Assembly: GCA_964528955.1 (NCBI GenBank)
Contig: CAZGVH010000001.1
Span: 3,606-40,341 of the forward strand
Direction: 5' to 3'
DNA from: an uncultured Dehalococcoidales bacterium
Lineage (GTDB): Bacteria > Chloroflexota > Dehalococcoidia > Dehalococcoidales > UBA5627
Length of the DNA: 36,736 nt
The notes below the pieces were generated by a model that searched no databases, was not told the DNA's origin, and worked only from the letters and a program-made list of their open reading frames with translations. This document shows, piece by piece, positions 7,218-36,504 of the stretch. The position numbers and the translations under genes are program-made. Position 1 is the stretch's first letter. Each line of letters opens with the position of its first letter.

Positions 7218-7226
7218 TCTAATATC

Positions 7227-13595: not shown

Positions 13596-13651
13596 AGTTT
13601 GTATCCTCCCGTTAATAAATTTTTTAAAATAATACGGCACTTACCGATTCT

Positions 13652-14226: not shown

Positions 14227-14239
14227 TCGATTTGATAAA

Positions 14240-14277: not shown

Positions 14278-14348
14278 TTATACAGCGCTAGGCTATAAAG
14301 ATACCTGGGTTTTTATTTTAAGCAATATAAGCATATGGGGGATAATTT

Positions 14349-18667: not shown

Positions 18668-19297
18668 CTATACTTGTTTTGCTATTAAAGCACCAACCGG
18701 ACATTTTTTTACACATTCCATACAGAAATCGCAATGTGCTATAGTCTCGAAGCAAGCAATTTTCGTATCGTATCCCCTGTTAACAAAGTATATATGGCTT
18801 ACGCCGTATATTTTTTCACAGGTTTGAACGCAGATACCACAGCGGACACATTTATCGGGGTCATAGTAAAGAAAAGGTGTTAGTGTTTCAAGGGGCAGTT
18901 TTATATTAGGAAGTCGTAAATTATCTACCCTCCGCCTGTCGATATGGAGATGTGCCATGATTTTCTGTAGCATACATTTTCCATTTGCCGGACATTCACG
19001 ACAGGTAAAGTGGTGATCAGCTATTATAAGTTCAACAATGGGGCGAATCGTCGCATCGATTTTCGGAGTATTTGTTTTAACAATCATCCCATCTTCTGCC
19101 AGTGTGCGGCAAGCCAATACAAGTTTTTCGTCGTCAATTTCAACTATGCATAAACGGCAAACACCGCTGGGAACTAAATCGGCATTATAACAGAGGTGCG
19201 GAATATAAATATTGTTTTCCAGAGCTACCTCCATAATGGTTGCTCTTTTATCGATTTCAAACTGCTGCTCATTTATAGAAAAACGTATCTTACTCAT
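18668..19297 (-). CDS. NuoG/HydA N-terminal-like Fe-S protein ([2Fe-2S] plus His-ligated and two ferredoxin-type [4Fe-4S])
   Basis: 209 aa. CYNADLVPSGVCRLC...ACRT ([2Fe-2S]); HHFTCRECPANGKC; CVRCGICVQTC and CDFCMECVKKCP. No catalytic domain follows. It overlaps the upstream gene by 8 nt. Confidence 0.8.
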   Translation of the reverse strand: MSKIRFSINEQQFEIDKRATIMEVALENNIYIPHLCYNADLVPSGVCRLCIVEIDDEKLVLACRTLAEDGMIVKTNTPKIDATIRPIVELIIADHHFTCRECPANGKCMLQKIMAHLHIDRRRVDNLRLPNIKLPLETLTPFLYYDPDKCVRCGICVQTCEKIYGVSHIYFVNRGYDTKIACFETIAHCDFCMECVKKCPVGALIAKQV

Positions 19298-20987: not shown

Positions 20988-21014
20988 AGTTTACCCCCAG
21001 CAAGGAAACTAAAA

Positions 21015-21740
21015 TTATTCAGGAATTTCCTCTTTTAACCCCGAAATATTAAAAAGTTTTTTTATTTTGTCTGAATTCATTTTTCCGTAAGTTTCGCTAT
21101 TTACGGTCATAACAGGAGCCAGAGCACAACAGCCTACACAAGCAACGGTGTCAAGAGTGTATTCATTGTCTGCAGATGTCTCACTTTCTTTTATCCCCAG
21201 CAGACTTTCTACTTCTCTTGTCAAACCGGGCGCACCGCTTATATGACAGGCAGTTCCTCTGCAAATACAGACATGCTTTCTTCCCGGTGGTTTAAGACGC
21301 AAAGATTTGTAAAAAGAAGCTACCGAACGGATGTGGCCGACAGATAAATTAAGATATCGGGCAATATGGCTAATCATATCTTCCGGTAAGTAGCCAAAAT
21401 TGGATTGGAGTGAGAGCAAAATAGGGATTAAACCGCTTTTGTTACCTCTGTAAAAAGAAAGAACCTTGCCGAATCTGAGATATTTAAACAGAGGGATGCT
21501 CATCGGGCATTCTGCTGTACAGTCACCGCAATCGTTACATTTAGCGATACCGTGTTTTATGCAATCTTCAAAGCGCCCTAATTTAATATCTTCCAAGAGA
21601 ACAGATGGCCAAAGCCCCTTATCGCAAACTTCCATGCATATATTACATTCAATACAGGGATTCTCCCTTATCAATTTTTTATCGTCAGGTTTATCATGCC
21701 GCTTGTTGAAAAAAGAAAAAGCCGTTGCAATTTTGTTCAT
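21015..21740 (-). CDS. NuoE/HydC-like [2Fe-2S] protein with an N-terminal 2x[4Fe-4S] ferredoxin extension
   Basis: 241 aa. CIECNICMEVC and CNDCGDCTAECP, then the NuoE-like segment LLSLQSNFGYLP...VCICRGTACHISG...VACVGCCALAPV. Confidence 0.8.
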   Translation of the reverse strand: MNKIATAFSFFNKRHDKPDDKKLIRENPCIECNICMEVCDKGLWPSVLLEDIKLGRFEDCIKHGIAKCNDCGDCTAECPMSIPLFKYLRFGKVLSFYRGNKSGLIPILLSLQSNFGYLPEDMISHIARYLNLSVGHIRSVASFYKSLRLKPPGRKHVCICRGTACHISGAPGLTREVESLLGIKESETSADNEYTLDTVACVGCCALAPVMTVNSETYGKMNSDKIKKLFNISGLKEEIPE

Positions 21741-21911
21741 ATTATATTTACCTGATATTTAATTTTATGAATGTATAGGAATATACATGTGTATTATAGA
21801 ATATAGTCACTAAATATAATAGTTCTATTAGATTGTGGTGTCTGCAAAATTGAATTTTAAATGTAAGTAACAATTAATAGACACTATTACAGAATAATAA
21901 TATTTTTATAA

Positions 21912-22976
21912 TTACTCCTTTAAATTAGGAAACTTATCTTTTGCATCTATTTCTTTTTCTCCGGTATATAGACCATATTCAACCAACTCTGATGCCAGTG
22001 CATCACAATAATTGCATTTATTACAGTCTTTCCCACAAGATGTAACTTTTTCAAAAAATCCATATTGCTCTAATAACCTGTTATTCAGGCATATACCGTT
22101 CACCATAGAGTACTGTTCCAAACTTCCAGTTAAAATATCCAACAGGTCTCCATCCCATTTTTCATCCATATATGCCTTTACAGCCCGTATAATCTTACTC
22201 TCCGGGGAAGCTCTGCCAACGATCTTAATAGAACTGGTTATTTCTATATATTTATGCATATCCTCAGGTCTTATCCATCCCGATTTTAATATCTGTGACG
22301 GGTCTTGACGGAATACTTCATTACAATATTTAAAAAACACCGGCTTTTCAGAACCTGTATTTTTAGAAACGTGAGAAATATAATTAATATGGAATTTTCT
22401 GAATGGACAATTACTCAAACATCCTTCATTTACCATCAATTTCAATTTGACGCCGGTTACTTTCTTAATTTCCTTAAGAAGCTCAAGGTCATGATTTATA
22501 CATGGATCCGGTATAATAACGTCTGCTCCCAAATCAGTGAAAATCTCTGCCCGTTTGAGCGAATTGATGTCACATAGTACAGATGCATATATTTCTATAT
22601 CCGGGATGCGATTCTTGATCATGTTAATAAAAATAGGATTGGCGATCGTTACCGATTCCAAACCGTGTTCTTTATGTAACATTTCAATATATTCTACTGT
22701 TTTCTTCTGCATATCGCTGGTATACCAGTCTTCTCCCTCGCAGGTCGAATTCAATAACAGATTAACCTTAAATCCCAATACATGTATCCTCTTGACTATT
22801 AACAGGAAGCTATCCATATCCAGTTTCCCCATAGCTCTACCTGAGGCAAAATATTCCTGAGGACCAGAGAGATAGACCTCGGTTATTTTGTTGCCGCTGC
22901 ATTCATTCATGCTATAGTATTCTGATAAAGTTTTGGCATTCATATTGTAAGGTACTGAAAATTCCAGATTTGTCAT
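21912..22976 (-). CDS. Peptidase-U32-family protein (UbiU/UbiV/TrhP/RlhA-like) with a C-terminal CX3CX2CX2C motif, paralogue 1
   Basis: 354 aa. U32-like collinear blocks: EVYLSGPQEYFASGR, KVNLLLNSTCEG, GLESVTIANPIFINMIKNRIPDIEIYASV, GADVIIPD, LMVNEGCLSNCPFR, IKIVGRASP. C-terminal SCGKDCNKCNYC. AGAGGAG lies 8 nt upstream of the ATG. Confidence 0.65.
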   Translation of the reverse strand: MTNLEFSVPYNMNAKTLSEYYSMNECSGNKITEVYLSGPQEYFASGRAMGKLDMDSFLLIVKRIHVLGFKVNLLLNSTCEGEDWYTSDMQKKTVEYIEMLHKEHGLESVTIANPIFINMIKNRIPDIEIYASVLCDINSLKRAEIFTDLGADVIIPDPCINHDLELLKEIKKVTGVKLKLMVNEGCLSNCPFRKFHINYISHVSKNTGSEKPVFFKYCNEVFRQDPSQILKSGWIRPEDMHKYIEITSSIKIVGRASPESKIIRAVKAYMDEKWDGDLLDILTGSLEQYSMVNGICLNNRLLEQYGFFEKVTSCGKDCNKCNYCDALASELVEYGLYTGEKEIDAKDKFPNLKE

Positions 22977-23045
22977 TTATAATCTCCTCTATAAAAAGTC
23001 TGTCAATGTATGTTCTTTCTTTAATTTAGTATAAACTGCATTTAA

Positions 23046-23720
23046 TTATAGATTACGCGTATTTAATAAATGTTTTTTATGTATAGTCATATTCAGAACC
23101 CAACGCCAGTTCAATACTATATGTATAATTATTATTGAAATGATAGCTACCGCTAACCAGGCATGAATATCAACCCATATATTTCTCTGCAATCCCCAAA
23201 AAGTACGACCTAATCCAATCAGCATATTTTCATAATCAAGTGCACCGCGCGGTAATACTAACCAGATAATAAAACCGGAAAGACAATCCAGTATAAAAAG
23301 AATAAACAATAATAGTGCAGCAATATATTGTTCTATTGCTTTTACCTTTATTATCGGCCAATTAATATAATCCCTAAACTTTCTTGTTAAACTAATGATC
23401 CACTTCCAATGCAGAACAATATGCAGAATTATTATTCCCAAGAGAACTATCGATGCCCAGTTGTGTACGTCTATCCACGTATATCTTGGCCAATTCATTA
23501 TAGTAATGTAGTTTCCGGTAATGCCGTAACCTTCGGCATTGCACCACATATATCCAGAAGCGCTCCCCAGTTCTCCGTGTGCTCCCTGTCCCATGGGAAG
23601 AATAAACCATAATATATAACTGGATACCAAGGTAACCAGGATAGACAACAGTGCTATTACATCCAGCAAGAAGTTAACATATCTTTTAATAATCTTTGCC
23701 ATGTCAATTCCAAAATTCAA
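23046..23720 (-). CDS. DUF4405-like membrane protein (putative cytochrome-b-like), copy B
   Basis: 224 aa, 4 TM. The first motif ILHIVLHWKW is intact; the second reads IIHIVLNWRW (His to Asn). Paralogue of 7227..7892. Confidence 0.65.
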   Translation of the reverse strand: MNFGIDMAKIIKRYVNFLLDVIALLSILVTLVSSYILWFILPMGQGAHGELGSASGYMWCNAEGYGITGNYITIMNWPRYTWIDVHNWASIVLLGIIILHIVLHWKWIISLTRKFRDYINWPIIKVKAIEQYIAALLLFILFILDCLSGFIIWLVLPRGALDYENMLIGLGRTFWGLQRNIWVDIHAWLAVAIISIIIIHIVLNWRWVLNMTIHKKHLLNTRNL

Positions 23721-23764
23721 TAAAGCTAGGACATTATATTTAATGATTCATATCCAAATTAACC

Positions 23765-24583
23765 TTATACCAGCGGGACCCTTAAATTTTCGTGAAATGA
23801 ATCCAGAAAGCTTATATCCTTCTCTGATATAGCGAAGTCAAATATGTCTATATTTTCCCTGATCCTGTCTTCATTCGATGATTTGGGAATTGTTACCAAT
23901 CCTTTTTGAAGCGCCCAACGGATTAGTACCTGAGCAGCAGTTTTATGATACTTCAGTGACAGCAAGACTAATTTTGAATCTGTTAATTTTACTTTTCTTG
24001 TAAGCGGGCAATATGATTCAACTTGTATTTTATGAATTTGGCAGAACTCGAGAAGTTCCTTTTGATAAAAGTAAGGATTAAATTCGACTTGATTAACAGA
24101 AGGAATAACTGAAGAGTTGTCTATCAGATATTCGAGTTGTGGAATGGTATAATTGCTGACACCTATAGCCCTGCATTTACCTTGTTTTAGCAATGTTTCC
24201 ATTGCATTCCAGGTTTCATCAAGCAATTCTTGAGCAGGCCAGTGTATCAAGTAAAGATCGATATAGGAAAGCTTTAATAATTTAAGGCTTCTTTCACAGG
24301 CATTAAGTGTAGATTTGTATCCCTGTTCTGCCGGCCACAATTTGGTAGTGATAAAAATATCTTCTCTCGGTATACAGCTTTTATTGACAGCTGTTCCAAT
24401 ATCCTTTTCATTCTGATATATCATGGCGGTATCGATAAGCCTGTATCCGTTTCTTAGGGAACATAATACTGACTTCTCTGCTACCTCGCCATAGAGTTGC
24501 CAGCTACCGAATCCTATAATAGGCATTTCTACTCCGTTATTAAGTCTTACTCTTGTTTCCGAATTGATTTTATTATTTGACAT
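23765..24583 (-). CDS. Aldo/keto reductase (NAD(P)H-dependent)
   Basis: 272 aa. Catalytic tetrad context LIDTAMIYQNE, ITTKLW, LYLIHWP. Typical AKR length and N-terminal MPIIGFGSWQL. Confidence 0.9.
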   Translation of the reverse strand: MSNNKINSETRVRLNNGVEMPIIGFGSWQLYGEVAEKSVLCSLRNGYRLIDTAMIYQNEKDIGTAVNKSCIPREDIFITTKLWPAEQGYKSTLNACERSLKLLKLSYIDLYLIHWPAQELLDETWNAMETLLKQGKCRAIGVSNYTIPQLEYLIDNSSVIPSVNQVEFNPYFYQKELLEFCQIHKIQVESYCPLTRKVKLTDSKLVLLSLKYHKTAAQVLIRWALQKGLVTIPKSSNEDRIRENIDIFDFAISEKDISFLDSFHENLRVPLV

Positions 24584-24638
24584 TGCATTTTAAAAAAGAA
24601 AGCGTTTTAATAAATTAGTCGTGTATTTATATTTACGG

Positions 24639-25679
24639 TTAATAAACCTCTTCTTTTAATTCTTTTGTATAATGCCTGAATTCAAATAACTTTCTGGATA
24701 ACTCATCGCAATAGTTACATTTATGACATTCTTTATTACAAGAAGTGACTTTTTCGAAAAAACCATACTTATCGAGGCTTTTATTATCCAGATAGACTCC
24801 GTATTGCGAATTGAATACGGCGAAGCTATCACACATTATATCCAGCAGACCGCCTTCCCAACTTTCCTGCATATATGCTTTTATACATCTCATAACCTTG
24901 TTCATCGGAGTGCTTCTTCCAACGATTTTGAAATAGCTAGTTATTTCTCCATATTTTTGGAGATCCTCCGGCCTGATCCAGCAAGACTTTAAAACCTGAG
25001 AAGGATCATGTGCACTTACAGCAACACAATTGTCAAAAAAGATACTCGGCTCATCTTTTACCTCTTTTGAGGCATGTGAAACATAATTAAAATGGAATCT
25101 TCTGAAAGGACACTTGTAGAGGCATCCCTCATTTACCATAGGTTTGATCTTCAGTCCGGTAATATCCTTTATTTCCTTAAGCAGCTTTAAATTCCTGTTA
25201 ATATTCATATCAGGAGTCACAACATCAGCTCCTGCTTTTTTAAAGAGGATAGCTCTCTGAACGCAATCTATCTCAGATAAAACAGAAGCGCAAATTTCCA
25301 GATCGGGAAAATTTTTCCTTATCAATTTCATTAATATGGGATTAACTAAAGTTACTGTTTCTACACCGTAGTCCCCATGCGCTTTTGCCAGGTATTCCAT
25401 GATTTTTTTTACAGTCTTCATGGAATACCAGTCGCTGCCTTCGCAGGTAGTATTCATTACCAGGTTTACGCGTAATCCATTGTGATGAATCTTTTTTACG
25501 GTCTCTATGAATCTATCCATTCCCTGCATAGCGGTAATTCTCCCCGATCCGGAATATTCCTGCGGGCCTGAAAGATATACCTCTCTGATTCTATTGTTAT
25601 TCAGGTTTTTGGATTTAAATATTTCATTCAATGTTGCGGGGTCATCATTATAAGGAATAGAAAATTCCAAATTGGCCAT
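24639..25679 (-). CDS. Peptidase-U32-family protein with a C-terminal CX3CX2CX2C motif, paralogue 2
   Basis: The track ORF starts at a TTG (25694). The ATG at 25679 follows GGGGGGAA and aligns with the paralogue start (MANLEFSIPYN vs MTNLEFSVPYN). Same U32 blocks, and C-terminal SCNKECHKCNYC. Confidence 0.65.
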   Translation of the reverse strand: MANLEFSIPYNDDPATLNEIFKSKNLNNNRIREVYLSGPQEYSGSGRITAMQGMDRFIETVKKIHHNGLRVNLVMNTTCEGSDWYSMKTVKKIMEYLAKAHGDYGVETVTLVNPILMKLIRKNFPDLEICASVLSEIDCVQRAILFKKAGADVVTPDMNINRNLKLLKEIKDITGLKIKPMVNEGCLYKCPFRRFHFNYVSHASKEVKDEPSIFFDNCVAVSAHDPSQVLKSCWIRPEDLQKYGEITSYFKIVGRSTPMNKVMRCIKAYMQESWEGGLLDIMCDSFAVFNSQYGVYLDNKSLDKYGFFEKVTSCNKECHKCNYCDELSRKLFEFRHYTKELKEEVY

Positions 25680-25758
25680 TTTATTTCCCCCCAATTTTTA
25701 TTTTAAACAAAGCCTTAGGGCTCAGTTGAACAAGCAATTTAATTTATGACTATTAACT

Positions 25759-27297
25759 CTATTTAGTATTCAAAGTATCCGGGTTGATTCGATAATTCAT
25801 CTCATCCTTTTGCAGATGATAGCGCATATTTTCCGATTCGGATTTACTACAAATTCCATATTTTTCCATAAGATCAATCGAATTTCCTATTGAATTGTTA
25901 ATCGACTTTATAATCATGTTCCTGTTAAGACAGGCTGTTTCATAGGATATCCATTGGTACCATGAGTTAAAAGACATACCACTGACATAATCTTCCAGAT
26001 TCTTGAATCTTAATCGATAGCCGTACTTGTCCGGATAGTCGAAGGCCTGAGAGCCGGGGTCGAGCAGAATCATAGGCCCGAACGAATACATTGCCGGCGC
26101 TCTCCCCGGAGTTTTACTGTTTAATTTACAGATTTCCTCCCATACCTCCCAGTTCTTTTTTATAGTATCAGGTGTATCTTTTGCCAGAGCTATCATCGAG
26201 AAAACAGCGATGGCAATATTGTATTTCTTGCAGAGCCTGATCGTATCAAAAAGCTCCACGTTTGAATACTTCCTGCCGTGTGCCCCTCTTACGCTTTCCA
26301 CACAAGACTCCGGAGAAATAGTCAGCACCAAAGGCACTCGAATTTTTGACAATTCCCTTATATATTCCTCATCTGCCGGTCCCCATATTTCCATAGTCAG
26401 TTGGGTTAAATTTATCCTGGTATTCTGAAGAGTCTGCATAAGTTTAATCCAGTATTCCCTGCCACCCATGCGCGGATCCTGGAAAAGAAAAATCTGCTTA
26501 ATTCCCTGGTCACTGAGTTTTTTTATGTCCTGAGCTATCTTATCGGGACTTCTGAAAGCCGGACAGATTCTTCCAAAGTACCTCTTATAGCTATATCTGG
26601 AACCACCGCAGGTAACACAGTTGTGAGTACAACCGCGGCAAACCGGTATTGACCAGTGGGAGGGCGAATTTTTCGGAAATAATGCATGTTTGGGCTCTAT
26701 AAGGTCAAGCCGGGTAAATTCGTATTCATCGATACTGGTATTGGGAAGCAATAAGTCATTTATTATTATCTCTCCATTGCTGTCCCTGAAGGTAAGGCTG
26801 GGAACATTTTCGAGTCCGTCATTCTTTTCTAAGGCTTTCATCAGTTCCAGAAACGGTTTCTCTGCTTCTCCACGTATAACTGCATCTATAAAATCATATT
26901 TCCGAATAATCTCTTCAGCGAAAATACTGGAGGTTAGCCCTCCGAGAATAACCATGGAATGCGGATGCAGTTTTTTTAGCAGCTTTGCAACCTCTATGGC
27001 TCCCTGGGAATGTACACACCAGTGCAGTTCAACAGCAAATACCCGCGATTCAAGTGCTCTTAGATAACTCTCAACGTCAAATCCGTTATCTGCCATCATC
27101 CTGTCCCCAAGATTATCGACAATTACTTTATAGCCGTTTCGGTCAAGGTAATCTGCAATACTGAGCATACCGATTGATGGGATAATAAACTGGCGTGTAC
27201 TCTCCTGCACAGTTAAAGCTATTGGCCCTTCATTTATGACTTTTTTACGGAAGTCATAGATTGACGGCGGATGTATTAAAACGGCGTCATAATTCAC
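25759..27297 (-). CDS. B12-binding-domain-type radical SAM protein, subfamily unknown
   Basis: 512 aa. GTG start 8 nt after AAGGA. N-terminal AVLIHPPSIYDFRKKV...IIPSIGMLSIADYLDRNGYKVIVDNL. Cluster loop CRGCTHNCVTCGGS. Confidence 0.75.
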   Translation of the reverse strand: MNYDAVLIHPPSIYDFRKKVINEGPIALTVQESTRQFIIPSIGMLSIADYLDRNGYKVIVDNLGDRMMADNGFDVESYLRALESRVFAVELHWCVHSQGAIEVAKLLKKLHPHSMVILGGLTSSIFAEEIIRKYDFIDAVIRGEAEKPFLELMKALEKNDGLENVPSLTFRDSNGEIIINDLLLPNTSIDEYEFTRLDLIEPKHALFPKNSPSHWSIPVCRGCTHNCVTCGGSRYSYKRYFGRICPAFRSPDKIAQDIKKLSDQGIKQIFLFQDPRMGGREYWIKLMQTLQNTRINLTQLTMEIWGPADEEYIRELSKIRVPLVLTISPESCVESVRGAHGRKYSNVELFDTIRLCKKYNIAIAVFSMIALAKDTPDTIKKNWEVWEEICKLNSKTPGRAPAMYSFGPMILLDPGSQAFDYPDKYGYRLRFKNLEDYVSGMSFNSWYQWISYETACLNRNMIIKSINNSIGNSIDLMEKYGICSKSESENMRYHLQKDEMNYRINPDTLNTK

Positions 27298-27409: not shown

Positions 27410-27973
27410 TTAATTTTTACCGATGATTCTGTTGCGGAATATACCCAGTAAAAATACTATTGCACCTGAAGCAACAGCAAGCCAGTAACCTATAAGCAAA
27501 TACCCATAGGCATTAGCTACCATTTCTCCACCCAGGTCAATAAGTGTAGTACCTAACAGTTTCATATAGTAAAAGTCTCCGGTCCTTATGGCCGCAACAA
27601 TTACTGCCAACGCAGCAACAACTAAATATGAAAATCCGACAAATGTTATAAGAAAACTGGGCAAGGTTGTTTTTATCTTCCAAAGCTTTATTTCTTTATT
27701 TTTAAGGAATAAGCTGATGACTAATGCGGCGACCGCTAATATCAGATATGTCCACATTAACGGTGCAAAAAAAGCAGGCATATCAGCATTTTTTACAAAT
27801 GCTAGTACTTCCTCTGGCATGTTTAATTCAAGAGTCCAGGGACGTATAACAGCTGCGTTCTCGCCGATAGTCTCAATAGTCGCACTCCACCATGGTTGGA
27901 ACCATGAAAATAAAAGTAAACCAACACCGGCTGATAAAAGAAGCCTGAATATCCAAATCCTTGCATTTCCCAT
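27410..27973 (-). CDS. Putative membrane subunit of molybdoenzyme B (novel, His-free)
   Basis: 187 aa, about 5 TM. N-terminus ARIWIFRLLLSAGVGLLLFSWFQPWW is homologous to 8324..8902. No His residue. Confidence 0.6.
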   Translation of the reverse strand: MGNARIWIFRLLLSAGVGLLLFSWFQPWWSATIETIGENAAVIRPWTLELNMPEEVLAFVKNADMPAFFAPLMWTYLILAVAALVISLFLKNKEIKLWKIKTTLPSFLITFVGFSYLVVAALAVIVAAIRTGDFYYMKLLGTTLIDLGGEMVANAYGYLLIGYWLAVASGAIVFLLGIFRNRIIGKN

Positions 27974-28073: not shown

Positions 28074-28886
28074 CTAAGCCAGTGCGATATCTCCCAGATT
28101 GACGTCTTTTTCAGTATTGATATCGCTGATTGTTTTACTCTTGCCGGCAGCATCAATCTTTACACTGTAGCTGCCTACTGCTATGCCTTCGAACCAGAAA
28201 TCACCGAAGTCGTCGGTTGTGGCTGTCGCAGACCCGTCTCCTGAAAGGGTAACGGTACCACCGATAATAACTTCCTTCGTAGCCGGGTCGTATACTGTAC
28301 CGGCAATAAATCTCTTGGGCATATTCAGATAATACATCCTCGGTTTAGTATTGTATTCAGGATGCAAAACCTCTCCGGCAGCAATCTTGCTGCTGAAATC
28401 TGCCTCTTCGCCAAATTGGAGGGCATAATGATAACATGCATCAACACATCTGGGCTCTTTAATAGGCCAGCCTCTATCCAGAAGATGAGCACAGCCGGTA
28501 CATTTTTGAGCAATGTTCAAGTTATCATTAAAGTAGATATTGCTATAGGGGCAGTTATCTATACATAACTTACAACCCGTGCACAGTTTGGGATCTATCC
28601 ATACTATTCCGTCATTACGACGAACTATTGCATCTACCGGGCAATTCTCCAAACAGGGTGCATCTTCACAGTTATTACACTTAACAGGATAGCAATATAC
28701 TTTTACCTTGGGTGAGTTACCGACAGTACCGCGAACATTTTCATTCACCTTGATCCAGAACTGCCCTATCTCAGGCTGTGGCTTGGCATATGGCGTCCAG
28801 TCATTTCCGCAATGCTCATCCTTGCAGGCAATCTGGCACATACGGCATCCAATACATAATCCAACATCATGAACAAAAACTTTCAC
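28074..28886 (-). CDS. Four-cluster Fe-S subunit (BthL-like), copy B
   Basis: 270 aa. All four Cys groups are intact (CIGCRMCQIAC, CNNCEDAPCLENC, CTGCKLCIDNC, CTGC...CVDAC). Same C-terminal beta-sandwich-like domain. The GTG start overlaps the alpha stop (TAGTG). Confidence 0.85.
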   Translation of the reverse strand: MKVFVHDVGLCIGCRMCQIACKDEHCGNDWTPYAKPQPEIGQFWIKVNENVRGTVGNSPKVKVYCYPVKCNNCEDAPCLENCPVDAIVRRNDGIVWIDPKLCTGCKLCIDNCPYSNIYFNDNLNIAQKCTGCAHLLDRGWPIKEPRCVDACYHYALQFGEEADFSSKIAAGEVLHPEYNTKPRMYYLNMPKRFIAGTVYDPATKEVIIGGTVTLSGDGSATATTDDFGDFWFEGIAVGSYSVKIDAAGKSKTISDINTEKDVNLGDIALA

Positions 28887-31813
28887 TATTCTCCTCCTTC
28901 CTCTAACCAGGCTTCGAGTCTTCTACCTGCAGCCGGGTCGTATGCCCTCTTAAAGGCATCAGGGTAATCTCTCCTCCACTCGTCCATCATCTCGCCAGTG
29001 ACTTTTTCAATCTCTACAAGGTAACCGGTAACATATAATCCCATAGCGTTAGGAGAAATGCCGTTGGGACAGATAGTGTTGTTCTCACCGCCCCTGTCAA
29101 GTACACCTGGAATGATGTAATCTGTCTGGGCGCCGTGTTCCATTGCAACTACACCTTGCATAGTTCTCTCCCAGACTTTAGCCGCACCGAGTATAGCACC
29201 ACGGTCATTGAATATCTTAATAATGTCGCCGTCCTTGATACCTCTTGCCTCGGCATCAGCCGGGTTCATCTGTACTGGCTCATACCAGTATCCATCCCAG
29301 CCTTCTATCTTGGACAATTCTCTGAGCCAGGGGATATCGTCATGCTGAGAGTGATAGCGCCATTTCGGAGTGTTGGAAATCATCTGCAGAGGATAAGTCT
29401 GAGCTTTCTTGCCGGTACGGTATTCATCATAGAAATACCCTTCACCACCGGGAATCCAATGTGCCAGCGGAGGCCTGTCTTTATCATCGGGGAAGTTTTC
29501 AGCTAATCCGGTACTCCAGAACTCAAGAAGACCGGTTGGCGTTGCCAGAGGATTCTTTACCGGGTCATCATAGAATTTCTGGGAAGCCGGTGTCCTCTTA
29601 GCTGCATCTGGATGTAATCCTATTATATAATAGCCCCTTTCGTTCAATTCTTCCCAGGTTACTACATCGGTCATACCGCTTGTATCGTAAGCTTCTTTAA
29701 CCCACTCGTCAATAGTTTTTCCGCCGGTCCATTTATCGTAAAAGTCCAGTTTTTTAGCCAGTTCACCGACTATTTCATAATCGGACATGGATTCTCCGAT
29801 ACTCTTAATAGCCGGCTTTTCCAGACACCATACACCGTAATCCTCACTTGAAGTATTCATGTCGTATTCTTCAAGTTTAGTATTAACCGGCAAGACGATG
29901 TCGGAATAAAAGCAGGTGTCCTGCCACCACTGGTGTTGAGTTACCACGCATTCTAGAATATCCTCTTGATGAGCCCTGAATCTGTTGTTGCCATCATCAG
30001 TACTCTCAGTGTTGCTGGCGCCTTCCCACCACATGAATCTCACAGGAGACTTGTCCTGCCATGGGTATTCGAACTGCTGGAACTGGCGAGTCCTGTTGCC
30101 ACGGGTACCGCCGCCATACCAGGTTACCTTGGGATCACCCTCTCTCCAGGCAAAGCACCTTGAGATATCGGGGGAATGCATTAACGGTCTTTCTTCCACC
30201 TTAGGTATTGATAATCCTTCGGCCTTCATCAGCTCCGGGAAACGTCCTGACATGACTCCTTCTTTAGCCATCGGGCTTACCTTGTCATAAGAAGGGGACT
30301 TGGCAAAACTAGGTGTTCTAAGCGGGTTGGTGCACTGGTGTACACCAGGTTTACCCCATCCCTGCATACCCAGCAGATACCATTCCATTCTCATGGCTTC
30401 AGTTGAATATCCGCCGCGGCAGAGGCCGCCGCCGTGAGTCTGGGCAAATGATGCTCTACTATGTTTACCCCAGTATCTTGCCAGGGCTTTAATGGTCCAC
30501 TCAGGGGTTCCGCAAATTGAGGCAGCCCATGCGGGGGTTTTAGGAATACCATCCTCATCACCCATAACATAAGCCTGCCATTTATCAAAACCATGTACAT
30601 GTGTGGCTACATACTCTTTATCATAGGTATCTTCGGTAATCCAGATATAAGCTATTGCCAGCATCATACATGGATCGGAGTTCGGATAAATAGTTATCCA
30701 TTTATCTGCCCAGTAACCGGTGCCTGTATTACAATCAGGGCTGATAAATATACATGGAATACCAAGCTTTTTAACCCAGTAAGTACTGTAACCTCTTCTC
30801 ATTCCATCATTTTTACACCAGGCTTTGGTTACATTATCGCATCCCCAGTAAAGCATAAGCTCGCAGTTGGCAGAGATGTCTCCCCAAAAATTAGCATCCG
30901 ACTCTTCACCGAACATTTCAATTGCATTAACATGCTTGGCACCCCAGGCTGTTCCTTCCCAGCTATATGGGCTACGCATGGCTTCTGTATAATGTTGGCC
31001 GTATGTAGCTTGTGACCAGTAATGCAGGAATGCGCTGGTAGTATAATGATAGCCATGAATAGTCTTCAATTCACCATGAGCCGGGCAGAATGTACAAAGA
31101 GCTGCCGGACCGTATTTATCAGCAATTCTCTTCATTTCACCGGATACTATTGTTGTAGCTTCCTCCCATGAAATCCTCTTATACTTGCTGATACCGCGAT
31201 TTTGGGCATTTCTTTTTGCCGGATCACCACCGGGTTCCCAGTCAACTCTCTTTAACGGATATAATATCCTGCGGGGTGAGTAGGTACGTCTCTTATATCC
31301 GGCACCCAGCGGCGCCAAACATGATTTTTTGTGTGAGGTCCATGTCTGTCCGCGGGCTTCCCATGTCCATGGCTGGAAATTGGGGTCCTCATCAAAATGA
31401 ATTGGCCTGACTCTGACTATTTTGCCGTTTTTAACATCTACACATGCAGGCGACTCTAGGGCTTTAATAACTGTCTCTTCCGGCTCTAATGCCGGTTCGA
31501 TTGAACCACCGCCGCCACCTGTCGTTACTGTTTTGGTCTCGGTAACTGTAACCGCACCAGTTCCACCTACTGTTTTAGTCTCGGTTACCGTAGCACCTGA
31601 ACCGCCAACAGTTGTTGTAACTGTTTTTTCAACTGTTTTTGTAGTTTCAACGGTTTTAGTGGTTTCTCCTCCGCCGCAACCGGATAATAGTCCAGCCCCA
31701 ATAGCACCACCGACAACTACCGTTCCGGCACCTACAAGAAAATCTCTTCTTGAGACTTCACCGGATTGTTTCTTTTCTTCTCTCACTGATGTTTTTTCTT
31801 CTTCGTTTTTCAA
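28886..31813 (-). CDS. TAT-exported lipoprotein molybdopterin catalytic subunit, transhydroxylase (AthL)-like, copy B
   Basis: 975 aa. SRRDFLVG twin-arginine motif. Lipobox LLSGC (Cys46, codon 31678..31676). About 65-aa T/V/G/E/K linker. No FS0 Cys motif. YSWEGTAWG matches the segment I recall as carrying the Mo-ligand Ser175 in P. acidigallici AthL (DSWEGWHWG). TTG start after GGAG. Confidence 0.8.
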   Translation of the reverse strand: MKNEEEKTSVREEKKQSGEVSRRDFLVGAGTVVVGGAIGAGLLSGCGGGETTKTVETTKTVEKTVTTTVGGSGATVTETKTVGGTGAVTVTETKTVTTGGGGGSIEPALEPEETVIKALESPACVDVKNGKIVRVRPIHFDEDPNFQPWTWEARGQTWTSHKKSCLAPLGAGYKRRTYSPRRILYPLKRVDWEPGGDPAKRNAQNRGISKYKRISWEEATTIVSGEMKRIADKYGPAALCTFCPAHGELKTIHGYHYTTSAFLHYWSQATYGQHYTEAMRSPYSWEGTAWGAKHVNAIEMFGEESDANFWGDISANCELMLYWGCDNVTKAWCKNDGMRRGYSTYWVKKLGIPCIFISPDCNTGTGYWADKWITIYPNSDPCMMLAIAYIWITEDTYDKEYVATHVHGFDKWQAYVMGDEDGIPKTPAWAASICGTPEWTIKALARYWGKHSRASFAQTHGGGLCRGGYSTEAMRMEWYLLGMQGWGKPGVHQCTNPLRTPSFAKSPSYDKVSPMAKEGVMSGRFPELMKAEGLSIPKVEERPLMHSPDISRCFAWREGDPKVTWYGGGTRGNRTRQFQQFEYPWQDKSPVRFMWWEGASNTESTDDGNNRFRAHQEDILECVVTQHQWWQDTCFYSDIVLPVNTKLEEYDMNTSSEDYGVWCLEKPAIKSIGESMSDYEIVGELAKKLDFYDKWTGGKTIDEWVKEAYDTSGMTDVVTWEELNERGYYIIGLHPDAAKRTPASQKFYDDPVKNPLATPTGLLEFWSTGLAENFPDDKDRPPLAHWIPGGEGYFYDEYRTGKKAQTYPLQMISNTPKWRYHSQHDDIPWLRELSKIEGWDGYWYEPVQMNPADAEARGIKDGDIIKIFNDRGAILGAAKVWERTMQGVVAMEHGAQTDYIIPGVLDRGGENNTICPNGISPNAMGLYVTGYLVEIEKVTGEMMDEWRRDYPDAFKRAYDPAAGRRLEAWLEEGGE

Positions 31814-31890
31814 TTATTTCTCCTTTCATAGATTCTCGTTAAGATGCAATAAAATTCTGTATAGACATCACCCCCTTTTTAAATAAACTA

Positions 31891-32277
31891 TTAATTAGCT
31901 TTTGAATCCCAGGTTCTTCTTCTTACTATCGCATTCAATTTGGCTGCAAATATATTTGCATTGAATGGAACAGTGAAATAATCGTTAGCTCCATTGTCGA
32001 AGGCTTTAATCAACATGTTTATATCTTCATCTTCTGAAACGAGGATAATTGGCAAATCGGAATCGTCTCGTATATTCATAAGCAAGTCCAATCCACACAT
32101 ATCTGACAGATTAAATCCTAATATTAATGCGTCCGGACAATTACCGTTTTTTAATACTTTCAGGCACTGCTTTCCGGAGCCGATTACAGATAACTGACAG
32201 TCAGGGAGATATTGATTTATAGCTATTCGTATATTATCCGCAACTTCTATGTTTTTCTCTGCAATAACAATATTCAT
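31891..32277 (-). CDS. Stand-alone receiver-fold protein lacking the phospho-acceptor Asp (pseudo-receiver), copy B
   Basis: 128 aa. The beta3 end reads ALILG-FNLSDMCGLDLL, so Gly54 (codon 32118..32116) occupies the Asp position. The acidic pocket is degenerate (IAEKN). The conserved Lys is replaced (DYFTVPF). Confidence 0.75.
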   Translation of the reverse strand: MNIVIAEKNIEVADNIRIAINQYLPDCQLSVIGSGKQCLKVLKNGNCPDALILGFNLSDMCGLDLLMNIRDDSDLPIILVSEDEDINMLIKAFDNGANDYFTVPFNANIFAAKLNAIVRRRTWDSKAN

Positions 32278-32319
32278 TTACTTATTAAATTAAAATCAGT
32301 GATTTCCTTATATAGTATG

Positions 32320-32353
32320 GTAAAGTATCGGAATTAAAATAGACGTTAAAAAA
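32320..32353 (-). promoter_or_regulatory. Conserved intergenic element upstream of the receiver/molybdoenzyme operon (copy B)
   Basis: Counterpart of 14195..14226 (see that feature). It lies 43-76 nt upstream of the receiver ATG. Confidence 0.4.
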
Positions 32354-32519
32354 AAAGTGGATTGTTAAAATTTATTAATAAATGAATGAAAAATTAGAAA
32401 TGCGTTAATAAATACGTAAATATGATAGCGAATATCAATAATTCTCTAAAGAGGTAGTAATTTTTCTGGTTAAAATGGCTAAAATATGTAATTACAAAAA
32501 CATTATAAGACGGGGCCAA

Positions 32520-33200
32520 TTAATCGGATTTTAATATGTATCCGACACCTGCCTTTGTGTGAATAAAAACAGGGTTCCGCGGATCCTTTTCAATTTTATT
32601 GCGTAAGCGGTGAATATATACCCTAATCGATTCGCAGGTACTGGGATCGTTATAATCCCAAACTGCTTCAGCCAGGTTGGAGATTGGAATTACCTTCTCT
32701 ACATTTCTTAAGAGCTGGTACATTATAATACCTTCAGTTTGTGTAAGGTTAATTTTCTTTTTATCCACGAAAAGTACTTTTAAATCAGGTTTTAGCATTA
32801 GAGATTTATATTGGATCGCATTTCCACCACCGGGAATGTGTTGCCTTCTTAATATAGCATTCATTCTCGATATAAGCTCAAGTTGTCTGAAAGGTTTGAT
32901 GATATAATCATCCGCACCGGATTCTAATCCCATGATAATGTCACTTTCTTTGTCACGGGCAGTTAAAATTATTACCGATACCATAGAGAACAGTCTGATT
33001 TTTTTAAGTACGTCAAAGCCATCCATATCAGGCAATCCAATATCCAGTATGACAATATCCGGATTTTCATCAGCTATGATTGACAAGCCTTTTTCACCTT
33101 TATCGGTAGATAAAATAACAGCATCAGGCCAACGTATCCGGAGAGCAAGCGAAACAATGGATACGATATCAGCATTATCTTCAATAACAACTATTTTCAT
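32520..33200 (-). CDS. OmpR/PhoB-family response regulator, copy B
   Basis: 226 aa. IVVIEDN, VILDIGLPDMDG, ILTA, IKPF. Winged-helix C-terminus (VYIHRLRNKIE...GVGYIL). Confidence 0.9.
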   Translation of the reverse strand: MKIVVIEDNADIVSIVSLALRIRWPDAVILSTDKGEKGLSIIADENPDIVILDIGLPDMDGFDVLKKIRLFSMVSVIILTARDKESDIIMGLESGADDYIIKPFRQLELISRMNAILRRQHIPGGGNAIQYKSLMLKPDLKVLFVDKKKINLTQTEGIIMYQLLRNVEKVIPISNLAEAVWDYNDPSTCESIRVYIHRLRNKIEKDPRNPVFIHTKAGVGYILKSD

Positions 33201-33228
33201 ATGATTATTTTGATTTATTATAAATATT

Positions 33229-36200
33229 TTATATGGGTATAGAAAAACTAACAGTCGTTCCTTTTCCTAATGTACTTTTTACCCATATATCGCCGCCATG
33301 TAGATTAACATATGTTTTACATATAGCCAAACCCAATCCGATACTTTCATAGCGTTCATTAGTACTTGCATAAGGACGATACGGTTCAAAAAGACTACGT
33401 AAAGTATCATCTGACATACCACAACCATTGTCTTGAATTTCAACTATAATAAAATTATCATGCCTGTGTACTTTAATTATAATAGATTGACTATATGAAG
33501 TATATTTATACGCGTTATCCAATAAATTACACATTACTCTGATAATTTTTTGTTCATCAACGAAAACGAGTGGTAAATCTGATTCGGCAATAAGTTCTAC
33601 CTTAATATTTTTTGAACTTGCAGTCGGTTTAGTTGACTCTACTACACTTTGAATAAGGTCGTAAATCGATATTATCTCTTTCTTAATATCCAGCATATTC
33701 AGCTTTCCTTTATAAATATCAAAATGTTCACTGATTCGCTGTTTTAATAATAGAGCATTATTTTGAATTTGAGTCTGTAAATCTTTTCCTGTTTTATCTT
33801 CTTGAATTTGAGATAATATATCACTGGCGGCAACTATAGAAGTCAATGGAGTTTTAAAATCATGCATCAAGGCATTTAAATAATCTGTTTGTTGTTTTAA
33901 CTGCTTCTCTAACTCAAGATTGGATTTTTCAAGTTGCTTGCTGGCATCTTCCAGTTGATTGGATTTATTAACCAACTGCCCGGTTCTTTCTACAATTTGC
34001 ATTTCAAGCTCTTGAGCCTGCAATTGTAAACTGCGTGTCCTAAGCACTATTACTGCAATCACCGCTATTATTGCTAATAATGTTGAAATTAGTATAAACC
34101 ACCATTCCTGCCAAAAGGGAGGGGAAATAGTTATTTGAAGAGAAGCCCCTTCTTCATTCCAAATATTATCTTTATTACTTGCTATTACTTTAAAAATATA
34201 TTTTCCGCTTTCTATGTTGGTATACTTTGCAAAATTATCGCTGGGTCCGCAAAACTGCCAGTTGTTATCGAATCCTTCCAGCATATAAGCATATTTATCT
34301 TCACGTTGGGTGGTATAGTCAAGTGCGACAAAATTGATTAAAAATGAGTTATCGGAATGTTTAAGATTAACTTCCTTTATTTCTTCAAGTGGTTTTTCAA
34401 ATGATATCTGGTTTCCGTTAATCAGTGAAAATCCATTTATTACTACTGGCGGAATGATATTACTGGCTATTATTTGTTTAGGATCAAATGAAATAAGCCC
34501 ATTAGTAGTACCAATGAATATAAGACCTTCTTCATTCTTGCTTATTGATTTACTGTAATAAATGTTACTTCTTAACCCATGATCAATTCCGTAAGAAATA
34601 ACATGTTTCGATTCCGGTAATAATTTACACAGTGCATATTCGGTAAAAAACCAGATATCCCCTTCACTATCACCAGTGATGCCGATTATATTATCGTCTG
34701 GCAGGCCATTCTCTTTGGTATACAATTCGTGGCTGCCAATCTCAGGCACAAAAGCAATTAACCCGTTGTTTGTGCCAAACCACAACGTTTTACTATCATC
34801 TTCATAAATACTTTCGACCTGGAGGTTTAAAAAGGCGTCCTGTTTGGAATCTTGAAAATAATGGATGAATTCACCTGTGTTCTCATCATACCTATCAAGT
34901 CCTTTATCTGTGCCTATCCAAAGGCTACCATCTTCTGATATGAAAACTACATTGATATTGTCGCTGTTGATACTGGTTAAATCCTCAGGATCATTATGAT
35001 ACTGTATAAATTTATTTTCATTATAATTAAAACTACAAAGGCCTTTATCAGTACCAATCCATAATAAATCCTCTTCTATACTATTGACAATAGAAAATAT
35101 CCAGCCATCGGTAATGCTATTTGGATTTCCTTCTTCATAAGTATAATTCATATATTCACCGGTCTCTAAGTCTATTCTCACCAGTCCAATATAATCGGTA
35201 CCCACCCATAAGGTACCAGTTTGATCGATATAAACAGCGTCGGTGATTGCATTTCTTATACTGCTGATTGAATCGTAACTCAGATAGCGTTCCACTACGT
35301 TATCCTTGTAATTGAACCAGATAATGTTTGTACTCGTTCCAAGTATGCTAATATTACCCAAGATATCGATAGCCCTGATACCAACATCCTTAATTAAATT
35401 ATTGTCATAGTACTTAAAGTATTGCTTGTCCGGATCGATATAGTATATACCTGACATTGTTCCAAACCAGAGAATTCCCCATTCATCTTCATAGATCGAC
35501 CTGGTAACGTTACTCCCGATACTGGTAGAGTCGGTTGGATTATGTGTGAAAGTGGTGAAACCCCCGATTTCTTTATTAAATACATTTAAACCATCATCTG
35601 TTCCTATCCATATCGTATTTTTACTATCTACATAGACCACTCTTATTATATCGTTGCTAATACTATTGAGATCATCTGGATCATGAATGTAGCTGTTAAA
35701 ATTTTCCGTTTCTTTATCAAAGGAGTTTAATCCATACTCGGTTCCTACCCACAATAATCCATCGTTATCCCCATATATTGACCATACAACGTTATTACTG
35801 ATACTGGCAGGATCGTTTTGATTATGAGTATAAGCCGTAAAAACTCCCGTTTCTCTGTCCAGTTTATTAAGTCCTTCATTTGTTCCGATCCAGAGTGTCC
35901 CCTGTTTATCTTCATATATAGACCTGACTATATCATTACTGATACTGGCAGGATCGTTTTGATTATGAGTATAAGCTGTAAAAACTCCTGTTTCTCTATC
36001 CAGAGTGTTCAAACCCTGCGTTGTTCCAAACCATAAAGTATTCTGGCTATCTTCAAATACCGACCAGATAATATTACTGCTTATGCTGGATGGATTTTCA
36101 GCGTCGTTGGTATAGGTAGTGACATTACCCGTCTTAATATCCACAGAATTCAGACCGTATTTTGTGCCTATCCATAATATGCCCTGGCTGTCTTTATAAA

Positions 36201-36504
36201 TTGATCTTATAGTATCATCACTAAGGCCTTCTAATTCAATTGATTCAAGTCCGCTGCTTTTATATAACCCGCCTCTAGTTCCAAACCACATATACCCATA
36301 GTCATCTTTTGATATTGAAAATACAGCATTGTCAGAAATCAATGCGCTTGAACTCAATTTACTGAAAACTATTTTTTGTTCGGATGAATCCGTACTTGCC
36401 TTGATAATGTTAATGGGTGATTGAAATATACAGCAGAATATAATTAATACACATAATATTAATCCGCATAGTCTACATGTCATCGTTTGAAATATATTAT
36501 TCAT
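33229..36504 (-). CDS. Sensor histidine kinase with a large extracytoplasmic beta-propeller/Y_Y_Y domain, copy B
   Basis: 1091 aa. Same architecture as 15032..18271. H-box HDFKTPL, N-box LLDNAYKYT, G-boxes DNGCGM and GLGLAI. Confidence 0.9.
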   Translation of the reverse strand: MNNIFQTMTCRLCGLILCVLIIFCCIFQSPINIIKASTDSSEQKIVFSKLSSSALISDNAVFSISKDDYGYMWFGTRGGLYKSSGLESIELEGLSDDTIRSIYKDSQGILWIGTKYGLNSVDIKTGNVTTYTNDAENPSSISSNIIWSVFEDSQNTLWFGTTQGLNTLDRETGVFTAYTHNQNDPASISNDIVRSIYEDKQGTLWIGTNEGLNKLDRETGVFTAYTHNQNDPASISNNVVWSIYGDNDGLLWVGTEYGLNSFDKETENFNSYIHDPDDLNSISNDIIRVVYVDSKNTIWIGTDDGLNVFNKEIGGFTTFTHNPTDSTSIGSNVTRSIYEDEWGILWFGTMSGIYYIDPDKQYFKYYDNNLIKDVGIRAIDILGNISILGTSTNIIWFNYKDNVVERYLSYDSISSIRNAITDAVYIDQTGTLWVGTDYIGLVRIDLETGEYMNYTYEEGNPNSITDGWIFSIVNSIEEDLLWIGTDKGLCSFNYNENKFIQYHNDPEDLTSINSDNINVVFISEDGSLWIGTDKGLDRYDENTGEFIHYFQDSKQDAFLNLQVESIYEDDSKTLWFGTNNGLIAFVPEIGSHELYTKENGLPDDNIIGITGDSEGDIWFFTEYALCKLLPESKHVISYGIDHGLRSNIYYSKSISKNEEGLIFIGTTNGLISFDPKQIIASNIIPPVVINGFSLINGNQISFEKPLEEIKEVNLKHSDNSFLINFVALDYTTQREDKYAYMLEGFDNNWQFCGPSDNFAKYTNIESGKYIFKVIASNKDNIWNEEGASLQITISPPFWQEWWFILISTLLAIIAVIAVIVLRTRSLQLQAQELEMQIVERTGQLVNKSNQLEDASKQLEKSNLELEKQLKQQTDYLNALMHDFKTPLTSIVAASDILSQIQEDKTGKDLQTQIQNNALLLKQRISEHFDIYKGKLNMLDIKKEIISIYDLIQSVVESTKPTASSKNIKVELIAESDLPLVFVDEQKIIRVMCNLLDNAYKYTSYSQSIIIKVHRHDNFIIVEIQDNGCGMSDDTLRSLFEPYRPYASTNERYESIGLGLAICKTYVNLHGGDIWVKSTLGKGTTVSFSIPI
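35794..36003 (-). repeat. Near-identical 69-bp intragenic repeat pair inside HK copy B
   Basis: 35794..35862 and 35935..36003 differ at 3 of 69 positions and are offset by 141 nt (47 codons, one propeller blade). Both encode ETGVFTAYTHNQNDPASISN. Confidence 0.85.

Follow-up and report, generated by a model that had tools for sequence, protein, structure and literature searches.

A putative Tat signal and threonine-rich tether in front of AthL-like molybdenum enzymes of an uncultured Dehalococcoidales bacterium

The DNA analysed here, referred to as the window, is a stretch of 36,736 nt from an uncultured Dehalococcoidales bacterium (GCA_964528955.1, contig CAZGVH010000001.1, positions 3,606-40,341 of the forward strand). 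It encodes two large catalytic (α) subunits of AthL-like molybdenum enzymes, designated copy A (open reading frame (ORF) 9820..12663 (-)) and copy B (ORF 28886..31813 (-)), and in both proteins a putative twin-arginine translocation (Tat) signal and a Thr-rich stretch precede the catalytic fold. A first-pass annotation had drawn attention to this region of copy B at 31478..31813 (-), and its coordinates, reading frame and description of the N-terminus were accurate, as the segment codes for residues 1-112 of a 975 amino acid (aa) ORF that starts with a TTG codon at 31813..31811. The copy B orthologue L001, from a Dehalococcoidales metagenome-assembled genome and 92% identical at the aa level over the full length, was the sole close genomic relative in a scan of a genome collection and was used for comparison. 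The features of copy B are:

31820..31826 (-), Shine-Dalgarno sequence AAAGGAG, read in the sequence 6 bases 5′ of the TTG start
31757..31813 (-), N-terminal (n-) region, residues 1-19, long and rich in Lys and Glu
31733..31753 (-), putative twin-arginine motif S21-R22-R23-D24-F25-L26-V27, identical in L001
31676..31732 (-), Gly-rich hydrophobic (h-) region, residues 28-42, with putative lipobox L43-S44-G45-C46 (31676..31687)
31505..31675 (-), tether, residues 47-103, GGGETTKTVETTKTVEKTVTTTVGGSGATVTETKTVGGTGAVTVTETKTVTTGGGGG, 57 residues
31448..31504 (-), junction S-IEPALEPEE and predicted docking β-strand TVIKAL, residues 104-122
28886..31447 (-), catalytic molybdenum-bis(pyranopterin guanine dinucleotide) (Mo-bisPGD) domains AthL-like_1st, Molybdopterin and Molydop_binding (Pfam)

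The predicted signal peptide of copy B, VSRRDFLVGAGTVVVGGAIGAGLLSGC, spans 31676..31753 (-). It ends in the sequence LSGC, which fits the lipoprotein pattern [LVI][ASTVI][GAS]-C at the end of the h-region, with Cys46 encoded by TGC at 31678..31676; L001 keeps this Cys, as ILSSC. The tether that follows was correctly described as being of low complexity, since its alphabet consists of only T, V, G, K, E, A and S, but its length had been put at about 65 residues instead of 57. It is made up of three Thr/Val-rich segments, with Gly hinges (GGSG, GGTG and GGGGG) in between.

Copy A (947 codons, TTG start at 12663..12661) is collinear with copy B, except for Thr46 in the place of Cys46 and a shorter tether. 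The AAAGGAG sequence and its spacing are the same in copy A, copy B and L001, and all three genes start at TTG. The features of copy A are:

12583..12603 (-), putative twin-arginine motif N21-R22-R23-D24-F25-L26-V27 (TIGR01409, 18.5 bits)
12526..12582 (-), h-region, residues 28-45, ending I-L-S-A-T46
12406..12525 (-), tether, residues 47-86, GGGKTSTVTTTNVVTKTVVSGGGETVTKTITAGGGGGTTA, 40 residues
12349..12405 (-), junction PALEPEE and predicted first strand, residues 87-105, aligned to copy B and to the split loci described below
9820..12348 (-), catalytic domains PF21423, PF00384 and PF01568 (Pfam)

The curated twin-arginine model TIGR01409 scored copy B at 22.7 bits and copy A, as listed, at 18.5 bits, both above its cut-off of 16.7, and the two motifs (SRRDFLV and NRRDFLV) follow the Tat consensus (S/T)-R-R-x-F-L-K. 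The passengers are also of the kind that folds and binds its cofactor before export, with Mo-bisPGD domains in the α subunit and a signal-less Fe-S β subunit. Both parts of the earlier proposal, a Tat signal on either copy and a lipobox Cys in copy B only, were thus borne out. In copy A the position of Cys46 is occupied by Thr46 (ACC, 12528..12526), so that the sequence does not match the lipobox pattern, and as TGC and ACC differ at 2 nt the replacement cannot be put down to one miscalled base. The Cys is kept (as LLSGC, ILSGC or LLSSC) in all three of the closest relatives of copy A (catalytic part 85%, 73% and 73% identical), so its loss was recent.

Threonine makes up 37% of the copy B tether versus 6.3% of the rest of the protein (binomial p = 1.5e-11), followed by Gly (25%) and Val (16%), and 32% of residues 45-88 of copy A versus 6.2% elsewhere (p = 2e-7). 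Both tethers lack C, D, F, H, L, M, Q, R, W and Y, and that of copy B also lacks I, N and P. The T-x-T alternation noted in the first-pass annotation was above that of composition-matched shuffles, but the excess is modest, with 11 occurrences versus 7.1 expected in copy B (p ~0.03) and p ~0.06 in copy A. A repeat search found one 18-nt tandem duplication in the copy B tether (31627..31666, 2.2 copies) and none in that of copy A, and a young DNA-level repeat array was rejected as the origin of the tether.

Divergence between copy B and L001 was used to estimate the ratio of non-synonymous to synonymous substitution (ω, Nei-Gojobori, this pair only). L001 keeps the Shine-Dalgarno sequence, the TTG start, the RR motif and the lipobox, with a tether of identical length. 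The n-region was the least constrained part (ω 0.52), followed by the Tat motif, h-region and lipobox (0.108), the junction (0.077), the tether (0.063, with 23.5 synonymous versus 5.5 non-synonymous differences) and the catalytic part (0.052). Because divergence is dominated by synonymous changes and ω is 0.063 in the tether versus 0.052 in the enzyme, the tether is, judged from this pair of sequences, translated and under purifying selection about as strong as that acting on the enzyme. A start codon downstream of the tether, which the first-pass annotation had named as the finding that would overturn its reading, was rejected, as the Shine-Dalgarno sequence and TTG are conserved and the differences in the first 122 codons are mostly synonymous (45 versus 22 non-synonymous).

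The AlphaFold2 model of copy B has a mean predicted local distance difference test score (pLDDT) of 87, with values of 30-53 for residues 1-102. Judged from the DSSP string and pLDDT, strands are drawn in the tether at 63-66, 75-82 and 88-95, with a weak hairpin formed by 75-82/88-95, while the block 111-120 reaches a mean pLDDT of 93 and contains the TVIKAL strand (113-118), which is followed by strands at 122-128 and 131-137. Low complexity, a length varying between 32 and 65 residues among the homologues and low pLDDT are traits of a disordered tether, yet the segment is well conserved, and its clustered Thr/Ser in an apparently unstructured region (Thr 32-37%, pLDDT ≤ ~53) resembles O-glycosylated stalks. 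A unit GGxGA-VTVTETKTV recurs in copy B and in homologues (e.g. P0025, P0043, P0057 and P0062) and, together with the weak hairpin, leaves room for a stalk that is structured or specifically recognised.

A database search returned 2617 relatives, and the best 120 of these 2617 were analysed for signal, Cys and tether. An RR motif indicative of a Tat signal was present in 64/120, with the remaining 56/120 being signal-less. The tether was found in all Tat-bearing homologues where it could be delimited (58/64 by motif anchor, and 65/65 in alignment A1) and in 0/56 of the signal-less homologues, where the catalytic fold starts after 27-66 residues without any Thr-rich stretch. Linker and Tat signal hence go together. 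The lipobox Cys is found in 43/64 Tat-bearing homologues and follows the first Arg at a distance of 24 residues in 40 of these 43; among the 21/64 that lack it, many have an h-region ending in GITYPLV(A/S)GK. The n-region of the 64 proteins has a median length of 21 residues, and the family-wide tether a median of 53 residues consisting of 36% T, 17% V and 16% G, with aromatic residues, Leu, Met, Cys, His and Arg essentially missing. A few relatives (P0002, P0003, P0035 and P0049) have an Ala/Pro/Lys/Glu-rich linker in its place. Non-ATG starts (TTG/CTG- or GTG-type) were strongly preferred in the exported forms, being seen in 32/64 Tat-bearing versus 6/56 signal-less homologues.

Identity to copy B in the signal segment was 85-100% in most Tat-bearing homologues (65-100% overall), and that in the tether, a figure inflated by low complexity, was 58-82% in the 40 homologues that match best. 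In their catalytic domains these proteins reach only 43-48% identity to copy B, and the signal figure is not subject to such inflation. The linker is therefore not a freely drifting low-complexity spacer, as homologues differ less in its sequence than in the catalytic domain. Such conservation of a signal peptide is unusual, and one may speculate that the spaced Gly residues reflect helix packing or a dedicated recognition partner.

When residues 1-113 and 1-122 of copy B alone were used as queries, at least seven further families of exported proteins proved to start with the same n-region, RR motif, lipobox and Thr-rich linker. These comprise FAD_binding_2 flavoproteins (P0181, P0214), Peripla_BP_2 solute-binding proteins (P0192, P0194), a 4Fe-4S subunit (P0196), a Molybdop_Fe4S4-type Mo enzyme (P0197), a 2Fe-2S Fer2_2 subunit (P0211), Gly_reductase/GRDB proteins (P0209, P0245) and a UGSC-family protein (P0172), so that the feature is not specific to the AthL-like enzyme. 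Tat-targeted GrdB-like and solute-binding proteins are unexpected in themselves. The flavoprotein locus L009, which has the cassette, also encodes ApbE, a flavin transferase that flavinylates extracytoplasmic flavoproteins, and this fits an external location of the cassette-bearing flavoprotein.

The module was also found as a separate gene. The searches returned 21 distinct ORFs of ~100-134 aa, consisting of signal, anchor, Thr-rich linker and the tail EPWQEPE(E/V)THYxQLxFH, with a lipobox in the anchor of eight and without one in 13. In three loci the small ORF ends with TAG, and AGGAG and the ATG of an α gene in another frame lie within the next 26-29 bases:

L002, small ORF 963-1367, α 1394-4072
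L003, small ORF 5001-5363, α 5393-8032
L004, small ORF 2733-3095, α 3125-5764

Read-through of a selenocysteine or pyrrolysine stop codon behind these ~120-aa ORFs ending in FH was rejected, as AGGAG and ATG lie in a different frame in L002-L004. The α subunits of the split loci are signal-less (892 or 879 aa) and start with MGHPVIADSKNGKIIRIRP, which corresponds to the position of copy B residue ~120, and they are followed by the β subunit and then by the same membrane protein as in the window. A Pfam Response_reg gene lies just upstream in L002. The junction segment of copy B thus corresponds to the C-terminus of a separate small protein, and the natural fission point is the loop after the first strand (113-118) of the copy B model. 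As this point follows the first confidently predicted strand, the tail of the small protein is, on the strength of the model, best read as a β-strand donated in trans, and the stand-alone protein may be an escort or anchor subunit for Tat export. Taken as sequence, the signal, anchor, stalk and docking strand together are an autonomous unit for targeting and tethering, not for catalysis. The module is a lineage-wide, portable cassette of Dehalococcoidia and related Chloroflexota, which may also occur as a small separate subunit.

The best solved relative of copy B is the α subunit of the Pelobacter acidigallici transhydroxylase (4v4c_A; E = 6e-111, 31% identity), onto which the AlphaFold2 model superimposed with a Foldseek template modelling (TM) score of 0.87, normalised to 4v4c_A. 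Since identity to the Pelobacter enzyme is only 31%, copies A and B should, on sequence grounds, be named AthL-like and not pyrogallol transhydroxylases. The partner genes in the window are:

28074..28886 (-), copy B β subunit, Fer4_11 and C-terminal PF13620 (CarboxypepD_reg-like), no signal peptide
9011..9820 (-), copy A β subunit, likewise an Fe-S protein with a C-terminal CarboxypepD_reg-like domain and no N-terminal extension
27410..27973 (-), integral membrane protein of 187 aa after the copy B β gene, with ~4 hydrophobic stretches by eye and no Pfam match
8324..8902 (-), membrane protein of 192 aa, paralogue of 27410..27973

In both operons the β start overlaps the α stop by one base, and a DmsB-type profile aligns from residue 4 of the copy B β subunit, hence there is no N-terminal extension. 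The subunit architecture is that of AthL/BthL: Pelobacter AthL/BthL (PDB 4V4C) has the same α fold and Pfam domains (AthL-like first and molybdopterin domains), a β subunit with Fe-S and CarboxypepD_reg-like domains, and adjacent genes with a 1-base overlap. The Pelobacter α subunit has no signal, lipobox or linker, and its residue 14 aligns to copy B residue 121. The Pelobacter pyrogallol-phloroglucinol transhydroxylase is the sole characterised relative and is cytoplasmic, a location contradicted by the predicted Tat signals of copies A and B. The design is thus unusual, as had been proposed, when set against the characterised Pelobacter member, but within the Dehalococcoidia branch it is the rule.

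The window operons further differ from that of Pelobacter by the conserved membrane protein and by nearby DUF4405/cytochrome-b561-like genes. Homologues of the 187/192-aa protein are the third or fourth gene in L002 (4995-5588) and L003 (8972-9568) (alignment A2). Across the family (187-198 aa) the motifs W..PWW and MP.F...MW.Y are invariant, and no His or Cys is conserved. The protein was absent from two signal-less loci, from the Tat-bearing L007 and from the flavoprotein locus L009, and its absence from the latter two weakens the case for it as an obligatory partner of the module. Membrane proteins of the DUF4405/cytochrome-b561-like type are encoded near exported AthL-like operons at 7227..7892 (-) and 23046..23720 (-) of the window and at L007:8768-9826, and their proximity hints that the exported AthL-like enzymes exchange electrons with the membrane instead of performing a redox-neutral transhydroxylation.

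Export of a multi-subunit cofactor enzyme with one signal is well known from Tat hitchhiking, as for DmsAB, the small and large subunits of [NiFe]-hydrogenase, and AioAB. The same would apply here, where the signal-less β subunit, and in the split loci also the signal-less α subunit, must ride along; the difference in L002-L004 is that the signal carrier is not a cofactor subunit but a ~120-aa protein made up solely of signal, anchor, stalk and a docking tail of 17 residues. Dehalococcoidia are monoderms devoid of peptidoglycan, and Tat lipoproteins also occur in actinobacteria. Marine Dehalococcoidia are drawn with a surface layer (S-layer) coat in excerpts from PMC4959651, so the monoderm or S-layer envelope guessed at in the first-pass annotation agrees with the Dehalococcoidales source. 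Haloarchaea have Tat lipoproteins such as NirK, NosZ and solute-binding proteins (Gimenez 2007 and Storf 2010, via excerpts from PMC6098224 and PMC8301774), and as far as these excerpts go, they too include both cofactor enzymes and binding proteins, displayed on the outside of the cell's only membrane beneath an S-layer. They belong to another domain of life and use another lipidation machinery, and the excerpts do not describe a ~55-residue T/V/G stalk with Gly hinges or a stand-alone tether subunit. Some haloarchaeal Tat lipoproteins with a mutated Cys stay cell-bound via their unprocessed signal, according to an excerpt from PMC6098224, which provides a precedent for Cys-less anchoring of copy A.

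Bacterial prolipoproteins cross the membrane by the general secretory (Sec) pathway or by Tat (PMC3460810). The actinobacterial LpqH, SodC and LppX carry O-mannosylated Thr/Ser clusters near the lipid anchor, and this Thr-rich segment, placed like the tether behind Cys46 of copy B, comes right after the lipidated Cys, where protection from proteases or an effect on localisation has been proposed (PMC3460810). Those clusters are of ~10-25 residues, Pro/Ser/Thr-rich and of proven glycosylation, in another phylum with another envelope, whereas glycosylation of the stalk described here is only a candidate feature. Within the Chloroflexota, auracyanin and cytochrome c551 of Roseiflexus combine a lipoprotein signal or N-terminal anchor with a Gly-rich linker and a mobile redox domain (PMC10873879), but their linkers, of 6-12 residues, are rich in Gly instead of Thr, the proteins themselves are small carriers of electrons and not a ~130-kDa Mo/Fe-S complex, and no twin-arginine motif is mentioned in that paper. 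Our literature search found no paper tying threonine-rich linkers or Tat lipoproteins to Dehalococcoidia. Tat lipoproteins, Thr- or Gly-rich tethers and Tat hitchhiking are known kinds, and as far as this search shows, the arrangement on AthL-like enzymes, its lineage-wide use and the stand-alone escort form are new.

We consider it probable that the first ~122 codons constitute an export-and-tether module that displays the AthL-like Mo enzyme outside the membrane. The α subunit would be loaded with Mo-bisPGD in the cytoplasm and bind the signal-less Fe-S β subunit, after which the SRRDFLV signal would take the folded αβ complex through Tat, with β as hitchhiker. In copy B, Cys46 would be diacylglycerylated by Lgt and the signal removed by signal peptidase II (LspA), leaving a lipid anchor on the outer face of the membrane; the lipobox motif is seemingly in use in this genome, as the window also encodes a protein with a Sec-type lipobox signal (12807..13640 (-), ...AISAC), and the canonical lipoboxes conserved on many families across the lineage are indirect support for the presence of lgt and lspA. 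In copy A the Gly-rich h-region is most likely kept as an uncleaved signal anchor, with cleavage by signal peptidase I at ILSA|T and release of the enzyme being the less likely outcome. The stalk of 40-57 residues is hydrophilic, with β-branched Thr/Val segments and Gly hinges and no confidently predicted fold, and ends in the acidic EPALEPEE and a strand predicted to be the first of three at the N-terminus of the catalytic fold. It could act as a protease-poor leash on which the ~130-kDa αβ complex can move and reach out in the space beneath the S-layer of a monoderm cell without a wall, and may carry O-glycans as candidate modifications; fully extended, it could span up to ~20 nm by our estimate (assuming ~3.4 Å per residue). 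We thus share the inference of the first-pass annotation that the stalk keeps the enzyme off the membrane, along with lipidation and O-glycosylation as its likely and candidate modifications, respectively.

Several observations weigh against this tethering model. The Pfam TAT_signal model PF10518 stayed below its gathering score of 22.7 (copy B 18.5, copy A 17.5), docking to the neighbouring membrane proteins would not require a stalk of up to ~20 nm, and the tether is conserved beyond what a passive flexible spacer would predict (ω 0.06, identity above that of the catalytic part). From the sequence comparisons, this last point hints at a sequence-specific role not covered by a spacer. The Thr-rich segment could then form a stalk built as a β-hairpin or β-ribbon, with a function in oligomerisation, in binding to the S-layer or in recognition by a dedicated partner, for instance a glycosyltransferase, a chaperone or the conserved membrane protein; the excess of signal and tether identity over the catalytic domains, the low ω, the recurring GGxGA-VTVTETKTV unit, the T-x-T excess in copy B and the strands drawn by AlphaFold2 all speak for this. 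We nevertheless regard it as unlikely, given that pLDDT does not exceed ~53 throughout, that the length varies from ~32 to 65 with Ala/Pro/Lys/Glu-rich substitutes in the four relatives mentioned above, that low complexity inflates the identity values, and that the membrane protein is missing from L007. A more elaborate form, in which a sequence-constrained surface-display system has specific partners (a chaperone, a glycosyltransferase or the S-layer recognising the near-invariant Tat signal/anchor and the Thr stalk) and a detachable ~120-aa escort that takes a signal-less Mo enzyme through Tat by donating the first β-strand of its fold and afterwards keeps it at the cell surface, can be put forward only tentatively for Dehalococcoidia and related Chloroflexota. 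That the linker serves mainly in biogenesis, as an unfolded, hydrophilic and uncharged spacer which lets the bulky folded αβ complex clear the Tat translocon and keeps the signal accessible to Lgt and LspA with membrane spacing being incidental, would account for its strict co-occurrence with a Tat signal whatever the anchor type, for its presence on many unrelated Tat passengers and for the fixed RR-to-Cys distance. This explanation seems to us very unlikely, because the Cys-less GITYPLVAGK forms, for which processing by Lsp is not expected, still carry linkers, and because the diderm Tat substrates TorA and DmsA, of the same superfamily, are to our knowledge exported without such a linker; it is in any case compatible with a tether.

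For copy A alone, signal peptidase I might cut after I-L-S-A45 and yield a soluble exoenzyme, so that the paralogues would differ in being tethered or free. The Ala at -1 and Leu at -3 fit the relaxed -3/-1 rule of signal peptidase I sites, the signal and linker have diverged further from the consensus than those of Cys-bearing relatives, the linker is shorter (40 residues), and excerpts from PMC6098224 report the release of some haloarchaeal Cys-replacement mutants. Release is nonetheless doubtful: the tether was kept although it has no obvious use on a free enzyme, the downstream membrane protein was kept in the operon, and many of the Cys-less Tat-bearing homologues have full-length linkers and no plausible cleavage site (GITYPLVAGK), as expected of signal anchors. 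An annotation artefact, with a true start further downstream and the Thr-rich stretch being untranslated or low-complexity junk, could be argued from the non-canonical TTG start and the low complexity of the region, but it is extremely improbable in view of the strong Shine-Dalgarno sequence at optimal distance in copy A, copy B and L001, the excess of synonymous over non-synonymous differences across signal, linker and junction, an architecture kept in 64 homologues and TIGR01409 scores above the cut-off. 

Other genes in the window deserve mention. The lipobox protein at 12807..13640 (-) is a 277-aa protein with a Sec-type lipoprotein signal, DUF2202, a linker and a C-terminal rubredoxin domain, and a rubredoxin outside the membrane would be odd. 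Ahead of each AthL-like operon lies a paralogous regulatory set (13652..18271 (-) and 31891..36504 (-)), in which an ORF of ~1080 aa, with WIGT..GL repeated many times and a C-terminus that is histidine-kinase-like by appearance, is accompanied by ORFs of 226-228 aa and 126-128 aa that are response-regulator-like by appearance; the whole sensing-plus-enzyme unit appears to be duplicated. The regions 18668..27297 and 4654..6786 (-), which lie between the operons and next to them, contain two peptidase-U32-like genes and a pair of B12-binding radical-SAM genes, one of which has a PqqD-like C-terminus, as well as an ORF that is aldo-keto-reductase-like by appearance and a NuoE/NuoF/NuoG-N-terminal-like set. 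The G+C content of the α genes is 46-48%, versus 33-37% in the neighbouring regulatory and accessory genes (2-kb windows).

AthL-like genes are among the most multiplied in subsurface Dehalococcoidia. In excerpts from PMC3971608 and PMC4959651 they are read, by analogy with Pelobacter, as genes of aromatic catabolism, one paper proposing pyrogallol fermentation and the other the oxidation of aromatic electron donors, and these excerpts do not discuss export of the enzymes. Our sequence data indicate Tat export and tethering on the outside of the membrane for a large branch of AthL-like enzymes, which are often encoded beside cytochrome-b-like membrane proteins, and this points to external, perhaps polymeric or humic, phenolic substrates and to a possible coupling to membrane electron transfer. 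The naturally split module bears on how much of a Tat passenger needs a covalent link to the signal, and a wall-less S-layer lineage appears to make wide use of Thr-stalked Tat lipoproteins, a strategy best known from haloarchaea. If the more tentative idea of a dedicated display system were true, the 'pyrogallol transhydroxylases' of subsurface Chloroflexi would be extracytoplasmic and possibly respiratory enzymes, and not part of a cytoplasmic fermentation.

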